From contig PS015219.1 of the NCBI GenBank assembly GCA_048213135.1, positions 1-58,790 on the forward strand: 58,790 bases of DNA. The letters run 5' to 3'. The notes below the pieces were generated by a model. That model was not told the origin of the DNA and did not search any database. It worked only from the letters and a program-made list of their open reading frames with translations. The stretch is from Reclinomonas americana ATCC 50394. Taxonomy: Eukaryota. Positions 37,301 through 48,226 of this stretch are shown here, in pieces (within the stretch, counting starts at the first letter, position 1; each line of letters starts with the position of its first letter). A program made the translations under genes and the position numbers.

Positions 37301-39454
37301 ATGGCACTCTCTGTTACTAGTCTCCTCGCTGCTGCGGCTCTTGTCGTCTGCTTGCTTGCGTGCTCTGTCCATGCTGGCGGACCAGCACATGGTTTGTTCG
37401 CTATCGCTTCGTGTGTACTCGTCGGCATTGTTGCTCACCGCAGCCCGTCACAGGTCGACCAGACCCACATCATGACTCGAACCTTCCAGTTGGAGGCGGC
37501 CGCTGCTCAGCGGACTCTGATTGCAACTACAACAACGGAAGTTGCGCGCGCCCCACATCACGCAGTGTGCACCGACTTGTCTCGAGCTCGTACTGATCGC
37601 CCACACTCCCCGTGCAGCTTGTGTCCGTGGCCACTGTGCATGCGGCAACGGAATGATTGTCGGTCAGTGGTGCCAGGTGAGTGTACCCATCGTGCGCTTG
37701 GTGTAGTTCTCCTGCCTAACGCATGTCGATCGATGGTTGGCAAACACAGTGCCGACCGACTCAGACCGACGGCGTGTGCAAAGAAATGCCGAAGATGTAC
37801 CTCGTCCACAACGTGTGTGTCAGTGCCGAACTGTGTGTGACGGTGACGGAGAATGAGCGACGCGGATTCCTGTCTGGAGGACAGCTGGTTTCCGACTGGA
37901 ATGAGGAAGCGTTGCGTGTCACTGATGAGAGCTTCAAGTTATTTTTCATGTATATTTCTCACCAGGCGTACAGCATGCTCTGCGTCAAATCGTCGACCAT
38001 GGGTCCGCCAGACGCTGCTCGTATGCTTGGCATGTTGCACTTGGCCATGCACGACGCCATTCAGAACGTGCCGGGTGGACAAGTTGAGTCTCGCTCACGC
38101 GTGCGATGCTCGAAGCACTCACTCACTCTTTCCTCCTCAGTACAAGAAATACAAGTACTCGCTGTCGTCTCGCGTGCCTCACGACGCCTCTCGCGAAGCT
38201 GCTTGTGCAAAGGCGGCGCGCGACTTGCTGTACCACGCATTCCCCGATCGCCAGTCGTTCCTCGATGATCGCCTCACCAAGCACCTCAGCGCATTGCGCC
38301 AGTCGGGAGCCAGCAAGGTACAATCGATGTGTGATGCTGTTTCTTCTTTCCCAGAAAACTCACCCCATGCGACAGTCGGCTGGAGTGTCTATCGGCGCAC
38401 AGATTGCCGCCACAGTCATTGCCGATCGCGCAAATGACGGCGCTTCGCTCAAGCCGCTGCCGTACGTCGTGCATCCGGAGGTGGGCTTCTACAAGCTCAC
38501 ACCGCCGGGATTCCTGCAGCCGGCGGCGCAGCAGTACGCTCACGTGCTGCCGTTCACCATGACGGCGACGGACATGTTCCGGTTGACGCCGGACTCGCCG
38601 TTCTACTCGGACGAGCTGAAGAAGCAAGCACCCTTCAATCCGACTGAATTCGTCAAGAGTGCCGCGTACACCAGCGCGTGGCAGGAAGTCAGTGCTTACG
38701 GTGGCCAAAGCAGCTCCGTGCGCACCGCCGACCAGGGGAACAGTGCGCTCTTTTGGCGCGTGGATCCGACTCCCGATCATGGCGTCATCACGCCTCCGGG
38801 TCTGCACAATGTGCAAGCGCAGCAGTTTGTGGTGGCCCACAACTGCGACCTGCAGGTACGGACAACTCTTTGCAGTTTTTTACCGCGCGAGACTTGTTTT
38901 AGCTCAGACACCCTTACTGATGCACACGCGCACAGAAAGCGGCTCGTATCTTTGCCCTGTTGAATATGGGGCTGCTCGATGGGGCCGTCATGGCGTGGGA
39001 CATGAAGGTTTGTAACATGCAGCTTGTCCTTTGTTCCTAAAAGTGTCTGAGCGCAGCGCCGTGTGCGTAGATCTACTTCAACTTTTGGCGCCCGGTGACT
39101 GGCATTCAACTGGCCAACACGGACAGCAACTCGGACACCTCGCCCGACTCCTCGTGGCAGTCGTACATTGTGACACCGAACCACGAGTCGACGCCCTCCG
39201 GTCACTCGACGTTTGCCGGCGTGGGCGCCACCGTTCTCGGCCGTTTCTTCGATGACGCGACGCCCTTCACGCAGGAGGCTGACGAATTCCCCGGCATGTG
39301 GCGTCGGTGGGGCTCACTGAACGAGGCCGCGGAGGAGGATGGCCAGTCGCGCATCTTGGGCGGTGTGCACTGGCAGTTCGACAACCAGATCGGTCTTACG
39401 TCGGGCCGTCTGCTGGCCAACTACGTCTGCGATAATTACCTGACACCGAACTGA
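37301..39454 (+). CDS. Secreted vanadium-dependent haloperoxidase-like (PAP2 superfamily) protein with Cys-rich N-domain, copy 1
   Basis: Signal peptide; CSADSDCNYNNGTCVRGHCACG; WN…PPDAAR…AMHDA; K-x6-RP (MKIYFNFWRP); TPNHESTPSGH; SRILGGVHW. Confidence 0.9.
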
Positions 39455-40505: not shown

Positions 40506-43500
40506 ATGCGATTAACACAGTTGCTGGTTGCAGTGACACTGCTGTTGACGGTTTTGCTCGTCACCTTCACGTTGACGAATGCTGGTGAGTCGCCTCGCGC
40601 TGATGTGGCCATGGTGTTTTGTTGCCTGTCATGTTTTCGCGCGCACCAGTGTGGCGCGTGCAATCTCGTTCTCGTGCTCACCCCTGTGTGATTCTCTTGT
40701 GCTTCTGCTGTGATCTCCCAGACACGGATGTGGAGACGGATGGTGAGAGACACGCACAAAGTTGGTGGTGTATTGTGTGTGGGTCTCGTTTTGTTCACTT
40801 CTCCGCGGGAAATCAATGATTCGCCTATGCACACGCATGCACGTGCACACAGTGGTGCCTCCTGTGCACTGTTTTCTGACTCTCTGGCGCATAGCAGTGA
40901 CCGAAGCAGCGGAGGACTTTGGTGAGCTGGAGGATGATAGTGGGCTTACTGAAGTCGACGATGCAAGATTGCCGGTGAGACTGATCATGAACCCTGCTTC
41001 TCGTCTGTTTGTTTATCAGTGTGATCTCTCACGCGCGATTTCCAGCGTGGTCCGCCCGGCGATGACGGCAAGCCTGGCAAAGACGGCAAGGTTTGGAGAC
41101 ACATGCACACATGCACACATCGCAGTGACCGTCAGTCAATGATAACTGTGTCGCAGGCTGGTCCTCGTGGCTCCGCCGGTTCCCCAGGAAAGCCAGGCAA
41201 ACATGGCAAGGTGCAGTCGCTCGACTCCGTGCACGGTACAACTCGATTGATGCCGCTGCTGCTGACACGCACTCTCCACACACAGCGCGGCAAATCTGGC
41301 GCGCGTGGCAAACCAGGCAAGGTGTGGTGGTAGTGGTGGTGTTGTTTACGCATGGCTGAGGTAGGTGGCATGCTGACTTGAATGCATCGAGTCGTAGGGT
41401 GGTCGCAGACCGCCTGGAAAAAACGGCAAGGGTGGACCGGTTTGTGTTGCCTGGCGCTTGTCCTCCTCGGCTCGTTTGCCCCCACTCACTCATGCATCTT
41501 GCGCGTGCAGCACGGAGCTCCTGGTCCGCACGGATCATCAGGTGACGACCGGAAGGTGAGGACGGCGATCTTGTGTGTCTGACTGCTTGCCGGATGTTGC
41601 TCGATCTCTCACACTGCGCCTTCCTCAGCCCGGCAGGAATGGCAACGACGGCAAGGCTGGACGGGTTTGTCCTTCCTCGTGTACATGCCACGTTGATGAT
41701 TTACTGTGGTACTCACTGTGCGCACATGTAGCCGAGACCTGCCGGTCTTCGTGGCCCTTCCGGCCACCGCGGCAAGCGCGGCAAGGTGAGTGTGTCAGTA
41801 GCATCGCATGCTGCGCTCTGTGGTGTTCATGCATGCTCCTCAGCGTGGACATCCCAGCTGCAGTCGCGATAGCAAGGATGGTGAAAATGGATTGCTATGT
41901 GTTAGTGTGCCAGACGACACTCATGCTGACCGTTGACTTTCTTTGCAGTCGGGCAAGGACGGCACAGACGACGCTCCCGGCAAGGTACACCTTCCCCTGC
42001 CTGTTATCTGTGCATATTGCGACACAGTAGCACTCGTTCACAACAGTTGATCTAGTCATGTAGCGCACATCCTCGCATCTGCACGTTTTTTTGTTTTCTA
42101 ACGGTCTTTACTCTGCGCAGACTCACACTACTTCGATCCCAGCATCCCCAAAGGTGGTGGCGCCTGCAGCACCAAGGCCAACTGCAACAACAATGGCTGT
42201 TGCGTTCATTTCGTCGCGCGTCGTGTGGATGATTCTGTCTTATCGGGTGACAAACTCTGTGCACAGCATGCGTGGCCGGCAAGTGTGTGTGCGGCAAGGG
42301 CATGATCGCCGGCCTCTGGTGCCAGGTGCCTATCTCTCTCTCGGCGATGCAAGTGACTGTGCTGGAGACTCACCGCTCCTGTATTTATGTGATGCAGTGC
42401 CGTCCGACGCAGACCGACGGCGTGTGCCGCTTGCGGGAAAAAATGTACCTCGTGCACAATGTGTGCGTGGCCGCCGACGTGTGTGTGGCCACCACGCAAG
42501 CGGAGCGCGCCAGCACGCTCACGGGCGCACAGCTGGTCTCGCAGTGGAATGATGCAGCGTTGCGCAGCGCCCTGTTGTTGTCTTTGTTTCCGCACGCTTT
42601 TTCTGTTGTTTTGACGCGGGCATGCAGCATGAAATCGATCAAGGCGAACCAGATGCCGCCGCCCGACGCGGCGCGTATGTTGGCCATTATGCACCTAGCC
42701 ATGCACGATGCCATCCAGAACGTCCCTGGCGGTCGGGTGCGCGCGCGTTTATTTCTCTTCGGTCACCAACGGTCACTGTGGCGATCGTCGGTGTTTATCT
42801 TCAATCGCTCACCACACCCTCTCTCCTCTCTCCAACCACGCAGTACAAGAAGTACAAGTACGTAGCCACGCAGTGCAAGAAGTACGTAACCACGAAGTAC
42901 AAGAAGCGCAAGCACGTGACCGGCAGCACTCCGGCTGCCAACACATCCCGTGAGGCTGCCGCCGCTCAGGCCGCCCATGACGCTCTCTGCTTCTTCTTCG
43001 CCGCCCGCACGCCATTGTTGGATGCTCTGTTGGCAAAGCACCTGGCGACGATCGCCGACGGCGCATCCAAGGTTTGCGACACTCTCTTAGTCTTCCCCTT
43101 CGCTCACCTCACTCGCGCCGCGCAGACCCAGGGCATCGCGCTCGGATCCACCATTGCCGCCATGATTCTGGCCGATCGTGCTACCGATGGCGTGTCGAAC
43201 CCAGCGCCACCGTACGTTGTGAATCCCGCCGTCGGCTACTACAAGCTGACGCCGCCCAGCTTTGGCCAGCCGGTGGCGCAACAGTACCCGTTTGTGCGAC
43301 CGTTCGCCATGCTCACGCAGGGCATGTTCCGCATCACACCGTCGTCGCCGTTGTACTCGGACTACATCAAGTCCACAACGCCGTTCAACCCGACCACCTT
43401 TGTCACGACAGCGGCCTACACCACTGCCTTCCAGGAGGCAAAGGACTATGGAAGTGCGAACAGCACCAAGCGCACCGCTGATCAGGCGCAGACTGCTCTC

Positions 43501-44193
43501 TTTTGGCGCGTCGATCCAGTCGGCACCGCCCAAGTCATCACACCGCCGGGCCTGCACAACACTCAGACACAGCAGTTTGTGCTGGCGCACAACCGCGACT
43601 TGCAAGACGCGGCACGCATCTTTGCGCTGCTGAACATGTCGCTGGCCGACGCGGCCATCATGTGCTGGGACATGAAGGTTTGTTGCTGGCCCTCCTCCCG
43701 CAGCTGCGAGCAAATGCCTCACACAATCGTGTGACTTCGTGCAGGTGAACCTGAACTTCTGGCGCCCGGTGACTGGCATCAACAATGCCGACATTGACAA
43801 CAACTCGTCGACCGCCAAGGACGCTTCGTGGAGCTCGTACATCACCACGCCGCCGCACCAGTCCACGCCGTCGGGACACTCGACTTTTGCTGGCGCTGGT
43901 GCCACCGTCTTGGCAGCGTTCTTCGACGAGGAGACTCCGTTGCGTCGATCGCAGACGAGAATCAGAGAGAGGTTGTCGCTCACGAGTATAACTTCGATAG
44001 GTGGACGCAAGAGGCCGACGAGTTTGTCGGCATGTGGCGCCGCTGGGGATCGCTGTGGGAGGCGGCGGCCGAAGACGGCCAGTCGCGCGTCTATGGCGGT
44101 GTGCACTGGCAGTTCGACAACCTTATTGGTCTGACGTCGGGCCGCCTGCTGGGCAAGTACGTTGTCAACAACTACCTCACCCCCAATGCGTAA
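40506..44193 (+). CDS. Secreted collagen-like + Cys-rich + vanadium haloperoxidase-like fusion protein, copy 2
   Basis: Signal peptide, acidic linker, nine Gly-X-Y micro-exons (41046-41984), Cys-rich domain paralogous to copy 1, then MKVNLNFWRP, TPPHQSTPSGH, SRVYGGVHW. One junction (42081) needs a GC donor or an alternative acceptor. Confidence 0.8.
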
Positions 44194-44313: not shown

Positions 44314-45722
44314 ATGTGGGCGCGAGTGCGACACACTCTCACTGCTCCACAGCGCTTTGCGTCGTTCGTGGTGAACGAAAGCGCAGGTCGTCTGTGGCGA
44401 CTGTTGTGGAGACCAGCGACATATCTCCGCGTCGCCCTCCACTTGTGTGTGTTGGCCGTGGTGGCGTCGGTGGTGTGCATCATCGCCCTCGCCGTGACAG
44501 TGATGATGTATCGCTCGGTGCCCGAGTCGGTGATCGACCGCGAGCTGCACTTTGACTTTCGCGAGTTGCGCGCGGGCGATTGCAGGAACTCCTTCCACAC
44601 TCGCTCTCTCACACACACGAGTGCAGATCATCGCCGATCGCCTACAGCACATTCGATGGCAGCGAGCTGTGGAAGAACACGGCCTACGATGTGTACGTGG
44701 AGCTGGACATTCCACGATCGCCGGAGAATGAACGCGTTGGTGAGTGCATCATCATCTACGACCCGGCTTCCGCTTCTTCTTCTTCACTGACTCGCACCGC
44801 GTGCGCAGGCTCGATCGTCATTGTACTGTCGCTGCAGGATGAGCGAGGCGCAGTGCTGGAGCGAGCGGTGCGCACAGTCGCCCTCAAGTATCGCAACTGG
44901 TTGGTCTCCACGGTGACCACGGTGCTGTGGGCGCCCCTGACACTGCTGGGAATGACCGACGGCGACGAGTCGCACATCTCCACACTGATGGTGCGCGGGT
45001 ACGTGGATCGTCACGCGCTGGTCAACCGCACCACGCTGTCCACGATGATGGTGACACTTTCGTCGTCGAGCATTCGTCTGTACGGCGCGCGACTGCGACT
45101 GGAATCGAGACTGGGGTGGCTCGGGTGAGACGTGTTGTGCACGCCGGCACTGTTGTGGTTGGTTTCTCATCGCTCTGTTTGCAGAGGACTGCTGCAACTG
45201 TCGCCTCTTGTGTTTGCCACCACGGCCGGCATCGGCACCTTCGTCGCCCTCATGTGCCCGTACATGTGTTACTTGTGCTTCGCGGCGGCCCGTGCGCTGC
45301 TTTGGCACAGCCCCGAGGTCGACAGCGACGTCGACGACAATTACAGTGGATCGCCGAGTCCGCGCAGGTCACCGCCGAGCCCACGCAGTGCCCGACTCGC
45401 CTCCGCACCGAGTCGACGCTCTCGTGTGACCATTTCGTCGACGAGTACGTCGACCACTGCCGTCGTGGCGGCCGCGGCTCGAGCGGTACAACTCGATAGC
45501 TCTGACGATGACGAGCAGCACCACCACCACCACCACCAGGGTGATGTTGGGGCCGACGATGCAGACGATCTGGACGACGACGCGTCGGCATCGGCCCTAT
45601 TTCACCGAGTGACCGAAACCGAAGTCGTGCAACAGCGAACTGTCGAACGAGTGAGCTCGGTGCGGCGAAGAAAAGCAGCTGCCGCTGCCGTTGGCAGTGG
45701 AAGTGGCAGCAGAAAGAGATAG
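44314..45722 (+). CDS. BSCL2: Seipin (lipid droplet biogenesis)
   Basis: TM, RELHFDF, YDVYVELDIPRSPENERVG, LKYRNWLVSTVTTVLWAPLTLLG, IRLYGARLRLESRLGWLGGLL, second TM. Confidence 0.9.
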
Positions 45723-45804: not shown

Positions 45805-48226
45805 ATGCTCTCCGATGAAGATCGGCAGGCGCTAACAGTCCACGTGTGTCCTCTACACCGCAACGTTGCGTGCTTCTCCACCCGCGCATTCCTCCGATCC
45901 TTCTTCTCACTCTACACTCCCACTCCACAGACCGATGCGGCTCCGCTCCGTGTCTTCTTCGAATCACTGGGCGCAGTGGCCGACTTTCTACTGATTCGCA
46001 AGGACCGCTACGCATTCGCGCTGGTTCAGTTCAGCGACATTATCGGTTGCCACAATGCTCTCTCTCTCTCGGGCACCAACATCAATGCCGGCTCCGTTGT
46101 CTCCAATCGGTGAGCTCTCTCTCTCACATACACCTGTGACATGTGCATACTACACACACGCGCGCGCGTGTACACGTACATTCGTGGTGCTGACGGAGCA
46201 GACAACTCGCGTCCTTCCCAGCGTCAACATTCGTCAATCACAGCAGCCGATTGTTCATCGCTCGGCTCCACCACCACCTGACGTAACGTCGCAGTCGCCT
46301 GCCAAGCCGCGGATGAATGGCGGTGGACACTCGCAGTATCGCCAGCACGCACCTCCGGCATCATCGCCGCCACCATTACTGCTTCAATCGGCTCCACCGC
46401 TGCCCTCTGCTGCTCCTGCGCCACCACCACCGCCACCACCGCCGCCACTGTACAATCATGCTCTGTATATCCATCCCCAACTTCATCACCACCCGCATCC
46501 GCACCACTTCCACAATGGGCATCATCCACATCACCACGCAATGCCGATGCAGTTTCATCCCCATCCCCCTCATCCTCATCATCATCATCTTCCGCAGCAT
46601 CACCTCGGTGGCCACACGCCGCAACCACTTCCACCTCCGCAGAGCAGTATCCTGTCGCTGCCGCCAGGTCTGCTGCCGTTCCCGATGCATACGGCCGGAC
46701 CTCTGCTGCCGTCGGCGCCGCCCCTGGTTGCTTCAGCGCCACTGCTGCCGCTGGTTTCGTCACCGCCACCGCCGCCGCCGCCACCGCCACCGCCACCACC
46801 GCCATCGGTGGTATCGGCGATGTGGCCAATGCCGCCGGCAGTGACCACCACGCCTCAAATGGTAGGTGTACCGCTGTCGCAGCAGCCACCACCGCTATTG
46901 TCAGCATCGCTGGCACAGCCGCCTCCTCTGGTGCAGCCGAGTGCACTGGTTCTGTCGCCGTACGGATCCGGGCCAGCTCTCGCTCTTTCCGCAGCTCCGC
47001 ATGTGCCGTTCCCGTCGTATGCACCGATGCCCGAGAAAGTGCCGCTGTCGGACGAGTTGTACGACAGCGGAGTGCCGACAGTGAGTGGTGCGCTGCCGGA
47101 ACCCGACGTACCCAACACGGTGGTGGTGAAGAATGTGGCAAATGTTGCGTCTCCTGTTGTGTGTGCATTCCCTGTCGCGGCTGCCTTATTGATCGCTTTT
47201 TCCGTAGATTCCACGCACCGAGGTGGTTCGTTTCTTTGCCGACTGTGGACCCATCATCTCATCGTCGCACAAGACCGACGAGCGGCCCTTCTGCATCATT
47301 GGTTTCGGCTCACGACACGCCTACGAGGCGGCGTTCGAGAAGACCTCGTTGGAGATTCGCGGCCAGCAGATCACGTTGCGTGGTCGTCTGCAGCTGTGCT
47401 GTGCTGTGACAAAGTCTCTCACACTATACGTCTCTGCAGTGTGCTGCCGTACCGCAAATCGGAGCGGCAGCGAGCGCGTGAGGCAGAGAAGGAGCGCATC
47501 AAGGCACTGAAAGCGTCGCTGCTGTTGCGCTATCGCGACACGCAGGAGTCTGCCGCCGTCCACAAACCCGACTCGGAGGTCAGTGAGCACTGGTAGCCGT
47601 GATGTCTTGTTTCTGACTACTAACTTTTCGGGAAGCAGTCGAGCCACTCACGCCAGCTGGAGGTGGACTCGCTGCGCATGGCGTTGGAGATGCAGGCGGT
47701 CGAGATGGGTGGCGACTTTCAGGGTACGTGCTGCCACTAGTTTAGCATGTGAGCCCGATGCACTCGGTGGTGACGGTGTGCGCGCACAGGTCCGGATGGC
47801 AGCCTGCTGCGGGAAATGTTGGCGCGCGTCTCGATGGACGAGGATCCAGTGAGCATTCCCGACACCGACGCCGACGACGTCATGTTGCGCCGGCTCCGCT
47901 GCTGTCGCTCTCTGTTGCACCGGAGCCTAACTGTTCTCTACTCTCTGTCTCGCAGCTGCTCAATCTGCTATGACTTCCTGGCGGCGCAGCCGTGTCGCAC
48001 GCTTCATTGCGGACATGAATTCCACGACGGCTGCATCCAGGCGTGGCACACCCGCGAATGCGAAAACCTGTCGGCGGCGCACACCTGCCCACTGTGCCGT
48101 GCACCCTACATGCTGCCGAACACCGAAGCGTCGGCCGCCGCCACAGCAGCTGCCATGGCCGCCGCAGCAGCTGGACCGTCGCGACCTCCGTCCTCCCCTT
48201 CCTGTTGCTCCAAGTTCAGCTTCTGA
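45805..48226 (+). CDS. RRM - Pro/His-rich region - RRM - RING-H2 protein (putative RNA-binding E3 ligase)
   Basis: RYAFALVQF and NTVVVKNV…RPFCIIGF RRM motifs; CSIC…CGHEFHDGC…CPLCR RING-H2. Confidence 0.8.

Follow-up and report, generated by a model that had tools for sequence, protein, structure and literature searches.

Gene arrangement at the locus

The window analysed here, the whole stretch of 58,790 bases from contig PS015219.1 of Reclinomonas americana ATCC 50394, carries on its forward strand, at 40506–44193, a series of exons for a signal peptide, an acidic segment, a collagen-like region, two Cys-rich modules and an enzyme domain related to the vanadium haloperoxidases (VHPOs). The exons make plain what the parts are and how they are ordered, which catalytic residues are present and that the enzyme is related to this family; the question taken up below is whether all the parts are joined in one protein. 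Adjacent to these exons lies a tandem paralog (37301–39454, forward strand), for which a nine-exon model gives a protein of 544 residues with a signal peptide, EGF-like and Cys-rich modules and a VHPO-like domain. The paralog has no collagen, in agreement with an earlier interpretation made from the letters of this DNA (the sequence-only reading), which had proposed a secreted collagen–haloperoxidase fusion at 40506–44193. Exon borders of the predicted gene models were placed by coordinate, and all flanks were inspected.

The window has a G+C content of 58.7% and ten N gaps, none of which falls within 40506–44193. Its genes are interrupted by numerous short introns, and pieces of its open reading frames (ORFs) match the eukaryotic Pfam families Sin1, folliculin, BPI/LBP, RPB9/TFIIS, D123, seipin, TLDc and nucleotidyl transferase; on both grounds we take it to come from an intron-dense eukaryote.

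Comparison of the paralog with the collagen-carrying gene reveals 64% identity over 514 positions and five intron positions that are shared exactly. Exon 1 ends in phase 1 in both genes, and the EGF-like exon of the collagen-carrying gene and exon 2 of the paralog are both entered in phase 1, their aligned starts being neighbouring, not identical. Introns in the two genes range from 48 to 163 nt. Two of them are unshared: the intron at 38856–38935 is present in the paralog only, the collagen-carrying gene being continuous there, and a 62-nt intron at 43939–44000, with a GTTGCG donor, is present in the collagen-carrying gene only, at a point where the paralog is continuous. Each is a gain or a loss since the duplication.

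Signal peptide, acidic segment and collagen-like region

Exon 1 (40506–40584, forward strand, as are all the exons that follow) supplies the start codon and the signal peptide that the sequence-only reading had placed at 40506. It encodes 26 hydrophobic residues, with a best 15-residue Kyte–Doolittle window of 2.87 as against 2.73 in the signal exon of the paralog, and ends in phase 1 at the donor CTG/gtgagt. The acidic linker described in the same reading is also borne out and is divided between two exons: exon 2 (40722–40742), which at 21 nt is a multiple of three and optional, and exon 3 (40895–40974), whose 80 nt shift the phase from 1 to 0. Together they encode 34 residues, 14 of them Asp or Glu, with a net charge of −13. 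The acceptor at the start of the acidic exon is of the NAGNAG type, with two AGs 3 nt apart (40893–40897), and would permit two in-frame forms one residue apart.

The collagen-like region follows in eight short exons. The first seven, at 41046–41090, 41157–41210, 41286–41321, 41398–41439, 41511–41555, 41629–41664 and 41732–41785, are separated by introns of 66–76 nt, and the eighth lies at 41949–41984, with ends at 42009 or 42045 as frame-restoring alternatives. Their lengths, 45, 54, 36, 42, 45, 36, 54 and 36 nt, are without exception divisible by three, and each of the eight is in phase 0. The 34 Gly-X-Y triplets among the 116 residues encoded fall into runs of 16, 7, 4 and 7, with four interruptions; Lys and Arg account for 30 residues, and the net charge is +21. 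The longest run, of 16 triplets, compares with a maximum of 10 across 10,000 shuffles of the same residues. Pfam Collagen (PF01391) matches the ORF 41025–41333, which holds three of the eight exons, with 28.1 bits (cut-off 27.2, E 1.7e-6). Judged by its sequence, this region is a genuine collagen-type repeat, Lys/Arg-rich as had been proposed, and the three collagen peptides quoted at that time are exactly the exons 41046–41090, 41157–41210 and 41286–41321. The figure of about 135 collagen codons given with them was too high: 116 are secure, and 135 would need an uncertain, optional exon of 57 nt (41844–41900), lying within a 163-nt intron, which begins with Arg-Gly and encodes two Cys. The proportion of its codons with G or C in the third position (GC3) is 7/18 over the first 18 codons (41844–41897).

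Tandem Repeats Finder gave no repeat of exon-plus-intron size, and recent duplication of DNA is thus not the origin of the collagen exons. Translation of the collagen block revealed neither a Met nor a signal peptide inside it. The introns 41091–41156 (66 nt) and 41211–41285 (75 nt) are in frame and free of stops, so that the ORF 41025–41333 stays open even if both are retained. Four introns of the gene are long, at 107–163 nt (40585–40721, 40743–40894, 41786–41948 and 42737–42843), the others measuring 54–76 nt. A search of the long introns for hidden exons gave two candidates each in 41786–41948 and 40585–40721 and none in 40743–40894 and 42737–42843; these small in-frame candidates may represent further hidden exons.

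Cys-rich modules and the enzyme domain

Downstream of the collagen exons, a module with six Cys is encoded by two exons (42121–42198 and 42267–42325), the first of which starts in phase 1; the position and phase of the intron between them are common to the paralog. The Cys spacing of 5, 5, 4, 1 and 9 is kept in the paralog, and it is from this spacing that the module takes its EGF-like label. Of the Cys-rich, EGF-like character claimed for this segment, the six Cys and their spacing are seen in the gene model; in Pfam the intron-split exon pieces gave no match. A second module, with four Cys, shares its exon (42398–42573) with the start of the enzyme domain. Pfam gave no match on the piece 42398–42571; positions 19–74 of a hidden Markov model (HMM) built from 66 homologues of the enzyme map to 42491–42727.

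The first helical bundle of the VHPO-like domain occupies exons 42628–42736, 42844–43071 and 43126–43677, as located by Pfam VCPO_N, the HMM and an alignment to PDB entry 1vnc. The catalytic half, with the motifs RP, PSGH and SR-x5-H-x3-D, occupies exons 43745–43938 and 44001–44193 and was located by Pfam PAP2, the HMM and alignments to PDB entries 4cit, 1qi9 and 1vnc. The codon for Lys578 (43675–43677) closes exon 43126–43677, and the stop codon TAA is at 44191–44193. All of the vanadate-binding motifs listed in the sequence-only reading are present, K-x6-RP at residues 578–586, PSGH at 620–623 and SR-x5-H-x3-D (the R-x5-H of that reading) at 671–682 of the gene model. In an excerpt of PMC10278073, the vanadate-site residues of vanadium chloroperoxidase (VCPO) are given as K353, R360, S402, G403, H404, R490 and H496. 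Alignment to chains of VCPO, vanadium iodoperoxidase (VIPO) and vanadium bromoperoxidase (VBPO) identifies counterparts for all seven, namely Lys578, Arg585, Ser621-Gly-His623, Arg672 and His678.

The HMM is collinear with the exons over positions 19–421 of 456, with scores of 26, 214, 79 (78.9) and 65 (65.3) bits, and it maps likewise onto the paralog. Single exons score below the Pfam cut-offs, at 25.0 and 22.2 bits for PAP2 (cut-off 27.2) and 23.1 bits for VCPO_N (cut-off 29.3); the undivided last exon of the paralog clears the PAP2 cut-off with 38.5 bits. Taken alone, the enzyme pieces match PDB chains weakly (best E 3.8e-4). The closest solved structures of all three pieces are nevertheless vanadium haloperoxidases, on which the pieces are collinear along VCPO residues 244–352, 356–419 and 474–501. 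A profile made from one piece and 28 homologues matches the Zobellia VIPO (4cit) over almost its full length with E 2.5e-66 and the Curvularia VCPO (1vnc) with E 3e-45, whereas the same profile matches the acid phosphatase 1d2t over 35 positions only, with E 8e-3. VHPOs make up 21 of its 22 PDB matches. These results uphold the VHPO-like assignment of the sequence-only reading and support placing the predicted enzyme part in the vanadium-haloperoxidase branch of the PAP2 superfamily.

Class A non-specific acid phosphatases, which have a single bundle and about 230 residues, were considered as a family for the domain and rejected; the domain has about 444 residues and a VCPO_N-type first bundle, and the match to 1d2t is as short as stated. 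Peroxidasin and the animal heme peroxidases were likewise rejected, the heme-peroxidase Pfam domain occurring in none of the exons or ORFs scanned.

Two further residues near the active site were compared among the 153 homologues that have all three motifs. The first, a Trp three residues N-terminal to the Lys, is retained here and in 148 of them. The second, five residues N-terminal to Ser-Gly-His, is His in both paralogs and in 18 of the 153, as against Phe in 130. The algal bromoperoxidases in the alignment have His at the same site, where we take it to have a functional role. A 24-nt tandem repeat at 42856–42906 (2.1 copies, 88% match) gives rise to an 18-residue insertion rich in Lys and Tyr, which is absent from the paralog.

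Relatives of the enzyme domain

An exhaustive representative search gave 1926 relatives, of which the best 150 were inspected. Profile searches divided by length gave three matches of 976–2785 residues and 249 of 155–975 residues, 120 of which were listed, and a word-based search gave one match. The resulting survey is a partial one of 271 homologues in all, the 153 with all three motifs among them. Within the best 150 of the 1926, no relative exceeds 48% identity and none has E below 1e-30, the nearest proteins being 32–48% identical. Among the matches listed, the named relatives are proteins from bacterial metagenome-assembled genomes (MAGs) labelled "vanadium-dependent haloperoxidase" or PAP2, and the atlas clusters are 75–100% bacterial. 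The modules found on these bacterial relatives are PEP-CTERM, dockerin, RTX, FG-GAP, Big and a T9SS tail. A metagenome scan with exon 43126–43677 gave no relative, and we found no publication on a VHPO in choanoflagellates, nor, among the papers listed, one that links a VHPO with Acanthamoeba, Plasmodiophora or Thecamonas.

The possible joint between the collagen and enzyme parts

The EGF-like exon starting at 42121 has a strong acceptor upstream and needs entry in phase 1, but splicing out of the collagen exons leaves the reading in phase 0. Three joints that keep the frame were found. A candidate microexon of 4 nt (42056–42059) would restore the frame and divide the 136-nt intron into introns of 71 and 61 nt; this predicted exon is the sole candidate of length 3n+1 found. 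Alternatively, the eighth collagen exon may run on to a donor after 42045, which leaves an intron of 75 nt and is of the GTTG type behind an exon end other than G, or to a donor after 42009. Counted with the microexon, the insertion amounts to 453 nt, and it would sit in the first intron of the ancestral gene as a cassette with symmetrical 1-1 phases.

Donors of the form non-G/GTTGCG occur at 42199, 43939 and 37541. Across the two gene models, five of the six exon ends other than G have GTTG-- behind them, the GTAGCG donor of the candidate microexon being left out; the exception, at 37918, is GTCACT.

The block between the last two collagen exons also contains a second ATG exon (41878–41947), which joins the EGF-like exon in frame. 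Its hydrophobicity is weak (1.73), and the statement in the sequence-only reading that there is no second signal peptide between the parts has to be amended by this candidate. The accompanying statement that the parts are not separated by a stop fails for the obvious splice sites, as described below; the frame is open only with the microexon or an alternative donor.

A proposed single chain and its alternatives

We consider a single-chain architecture, with the predicted collagen and enzyme parts in one protein, to be slightly better than an even proposition. The best overall explanation, which we put at about even, is one gene at 40506–44193 of about 20 exons, encoding a secreted multidomain protein of about 706 residues. 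From the N-terminus, this protein would comprise the signal peptide, the 34-residue acidic segment, a strongly basic, interrupted collagen-like stalk of 116 residues, the EGF-like and second Cys-rich modules and a complete domain of the vanadium haloperoxidase type. One gene is favoured because the collagen block lacks both a Met and a signal peptide, and the enzyme half a convincing start of its own; both parts rely on exon 1, the sole strong signal exon. It is favoured further because only 136 nt separate the halves, because the phases of exon 1 and the EGF-like exon agree with the paralog, as do five intron positions, and because in-frame joints with introns of typical size exist (71 and 61 nt, or 75 nt). 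Moreover, inclusion of the collagen block exon by exon is to be expected, since its exons are flanked by AG and GT and by introns of the usual 66–76 nt. The gene would have arisen as a tandem duplicate of a simpler signal–EGF–VHPO gene, the collagen exon block having come into its first, phase-1, intron, and all of its exons would be spliced to one in-frame mRNA by way of the 4-nt microexon or an extended eighth collagen exon.

Several observations weigh against this reading. The donor AAG/gt at 41984/41985 follows the pattern of the other collagen exons, and if it is used and the 136-nt intron is removed whole, the frame is broken and a stop is reached after 214 residues. In-frame paths through 41786–42120 are plentiful, 15 with one exon and 145 with two, for which reason an open path is weak evidence, and finding a single microexon candidate is close to chance expectation. 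Skipping of exons 2–11, and with them all of the collagen, is likewise in frame and yields 555 residues. GC3 is 69/116 in the collagen exons as against 146/185 in the large enzyme exon, and no trimerising neck or nucleation domain was recognised. The motifs of the enzyme part are, as sequence patterns, common to acid phosphatases as well, and no assayed member of the bacterial-type subfamily was seen. Finally, there is no second example. The sequence-only reading had proposed a domain-architecture search and had regarded the architecture as undescribed; in our partial survey, Gly-X-Y runs of at least six triplets occur in none of the 271 homologues (0/271), the maximum being four, PF01391 is absent from the homologue rows listed (120 + 3 + 1), and no orthologue of the collagen–VHPO gene was found. 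We likewise found no description of such a fusion among the papers listed, excerpts of PMC8307928 and PMC9952816 included, and the view of the architecture as undescribed agrees with this outcome.

The broken frame and the in-frame skip suggest a different arrangement, in which one pre-mRNA is read in two frames. mRNAs containing the collagen exons would give a secreted collagen of 214 residues with an out-of-frame tail of 38 residues, or be degraded, and the enzyme would come only from mRNAs that skip exons 2–11, giving a 555-residue protein built like the paralog. Both products are open, the donor AAG/gtacac at 41984/41985 resembles the ends of the other collagen exons and the GTAC donors of the paralog, and the splice from exon 1 to the EGF-like exon recreates the paralog architecture. 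The skip, however, needs an intron of 1536 nt, which would be exceptional in a gene pair whose introns span 48–163 nt. The tail frame of exon 42121–42198 bears no coding sign, with a hand-counted GC3 of about 10/26 compared with about 21/26 in the Cys frame, and eight intact phase-0 exons would have been maintained for a truncated product. We therefore regard this arrangement as unlikely, if the most substantial of the alternatives on splicing. There could also be two separate genes. The first, a short collagen gene, would continue from 41949 without a further splice and stop at 42046–42048 after 197 residues, its frame being open throughout; the second, an enzyme gene, would start at the ATG exon 41878–41947, which ends in phase 1 and joins the EGF-like exon in frame to give 552 residues. 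The poor hydrophobicity of that exon set against the two good signal exons (1.73 versus 2.87 and 2.73), a donor unlike the types seen here and overlapping with the acceptor at the start of the eighth collagen exon, and the need for a promoter inside the collagen gene make this the least probable course of all. Scarcely better is the notion of a long first intron in which the collagen exons survive as decaying relics or arose as chance ORFs, or of an assembly error behind the shift of one base in the frame. In its favour, the sequence of the window is still a draft, broken by ten N gaps, the repeat has four interruptions and degenerate last exons, and its GC3 lies below that of the enzyme exons; set against this are eight consecutive stop-free exons of 3n length with proper AG and GT flanks, a 16-triplet run far above the shuffles and the absence of any N from 40506–44193.

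Independently of how the gene is spliced, its catalytic domain might be a secreted phosphatase or have some other PAP2-type activity. K-x6-RP, PSGH and SR-x5-H-x3-D form the general PAP2 signature, as reflected in the Pfam PAP2 matches, the homologue names ("vanadium-dependent haloperoxidase", "PAP2 superfamily", "membrane-associated phospholipid phosphatase") were assigned automatically, and phosphatase activity is established for apo-VCPO. We nevertheless think such an activity unlikely, though a serious alternative, to much the same degree as the reading in two frames, given that the profile matches VHPO structures at full length (4cit, 2.5e-66) and 1d2t over 35 positions (8e-3), that the Trp three before the Lys is kept as in 148/153 homologues, and that the His five before Ser-Gly-His, presumably of functional importance, aligns with that of the algal bromoperoxidases.

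Returning to the single-chain protein, its stalk may trimerise, bind acidic polymers of the cell coat, or both, and the adjacent acidic segment may mask it. The head would bind vanadate and oxidise halide with H2O2 near the cell surface, by analogy with the anchored bacterial relatives. If the fusion is true, it would be the first vanadium-haloperoxidase-type enzyme on a collagen stalk and a rare instance of an enzyme fused directly to collagen. It would further show extracellular-matrix modules shuffled onto a bacterial-type enzyme outside the animals, and would provide a testable protist candidate for matrix chemistry based on halogens. Gene prediction in this genome could also be tested usefully on the locus, where the frame depends on a 4-nt exon or an unusual donor.

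Neighbouring genes

A seipin homologue (44556–45125, forward strand, Pfam 77.9 bits) lies on the same strand as the haloperoxidase-like gene. Its first good ORF piece begins about 360 nt 3' of the stop codon of that gene, so that the genes are tightly spaced. Beyond it, an open frame of 533 codons at 45995–47593 on the forward strand has extreme runs of Pro and His and no Pfam match.

Comparison with known systems

The enzyme domain resembles VHPOs of the VCPO/VIPO type, represented by the Zobellia (4cit) and Curvularia (1vnc) enzymes, in having a collinear two-bundle domain in which the vanadate-site Lys, Arg, Ser-Gly-His, Arg and His align. It differs from them in being encoded by an intron-rich eukaryotic gene and in its N-terminal collagen, EGF-like and Cys-rich modules, and its activity is predicted from sequence alone. 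Its closest relatives, with the same motifs, are the bacterial "vanadium-dependent haloperoxidase" or PAP2 + VCPO_2nd proteins of Planctomycetota, Gemmatimonadaceae, an actinomycete and other MAGs. These too are secreted and often bear surface-anchoring modules, but their anchors are PEP-CTERM, dockerin, RTX, FG-GAP, Big and T9SS, with collagen in none of the 271, and most have Phe (130/153) and not His five before Ser-Gly-His.

The brown-algal VBPO is an extracellular VHPO proposed to cross-link wall polymers oxidatively (Salgado et al. 2009, as cited in an excerpt of PMC8307928). It belongs to a clade of its own (profile E 6e-08), acts on phenolics and alginate and has no collagen module.

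In animals, the heme peroxidase peroxidasin uses hypobromous acid to cross-link collagen IV and is not itself collagenous. The likeness to the present system is limited to the proposed logic of a secreted halide-oxidising enzyme beside collagen, fold and cofactor being different. One may picture a homotrimeric, collagen-stalked vanadium haloperoxidase in a cell coat or cyst wall, its basic stalk gripping acidic polymers and its heads making hypohalous acid to cross-link or sterilise the matrix, as an independently evolved vanadium counterpart of peroxidasin and collagen IV, built in a protist by the shuffling of exons into a phase-1 intron of a gene for a bacterial-type enzyme. We think this full picture distinctly unlikely, and the cross-linking role and the convergence with peroxidasin, drawn by analogy, are speculation.

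Collagen stalks are found in collectins, C1q and ficolins, which carry lectin or C1q heads, and in ColQ, whose basic stalk binds polyanions and to which acetylcholinesterase is attached as a separate chain and not by fusion. The predicted protein is set apart from all of these by its fused enzyme head and by the fact that a known trimerising neck is not recognised in it. It resembles them in having a short, interrupted and charged stalk N-terminal to a globular head, and its basic stalk, like that of ColQ, could bind polyanions.

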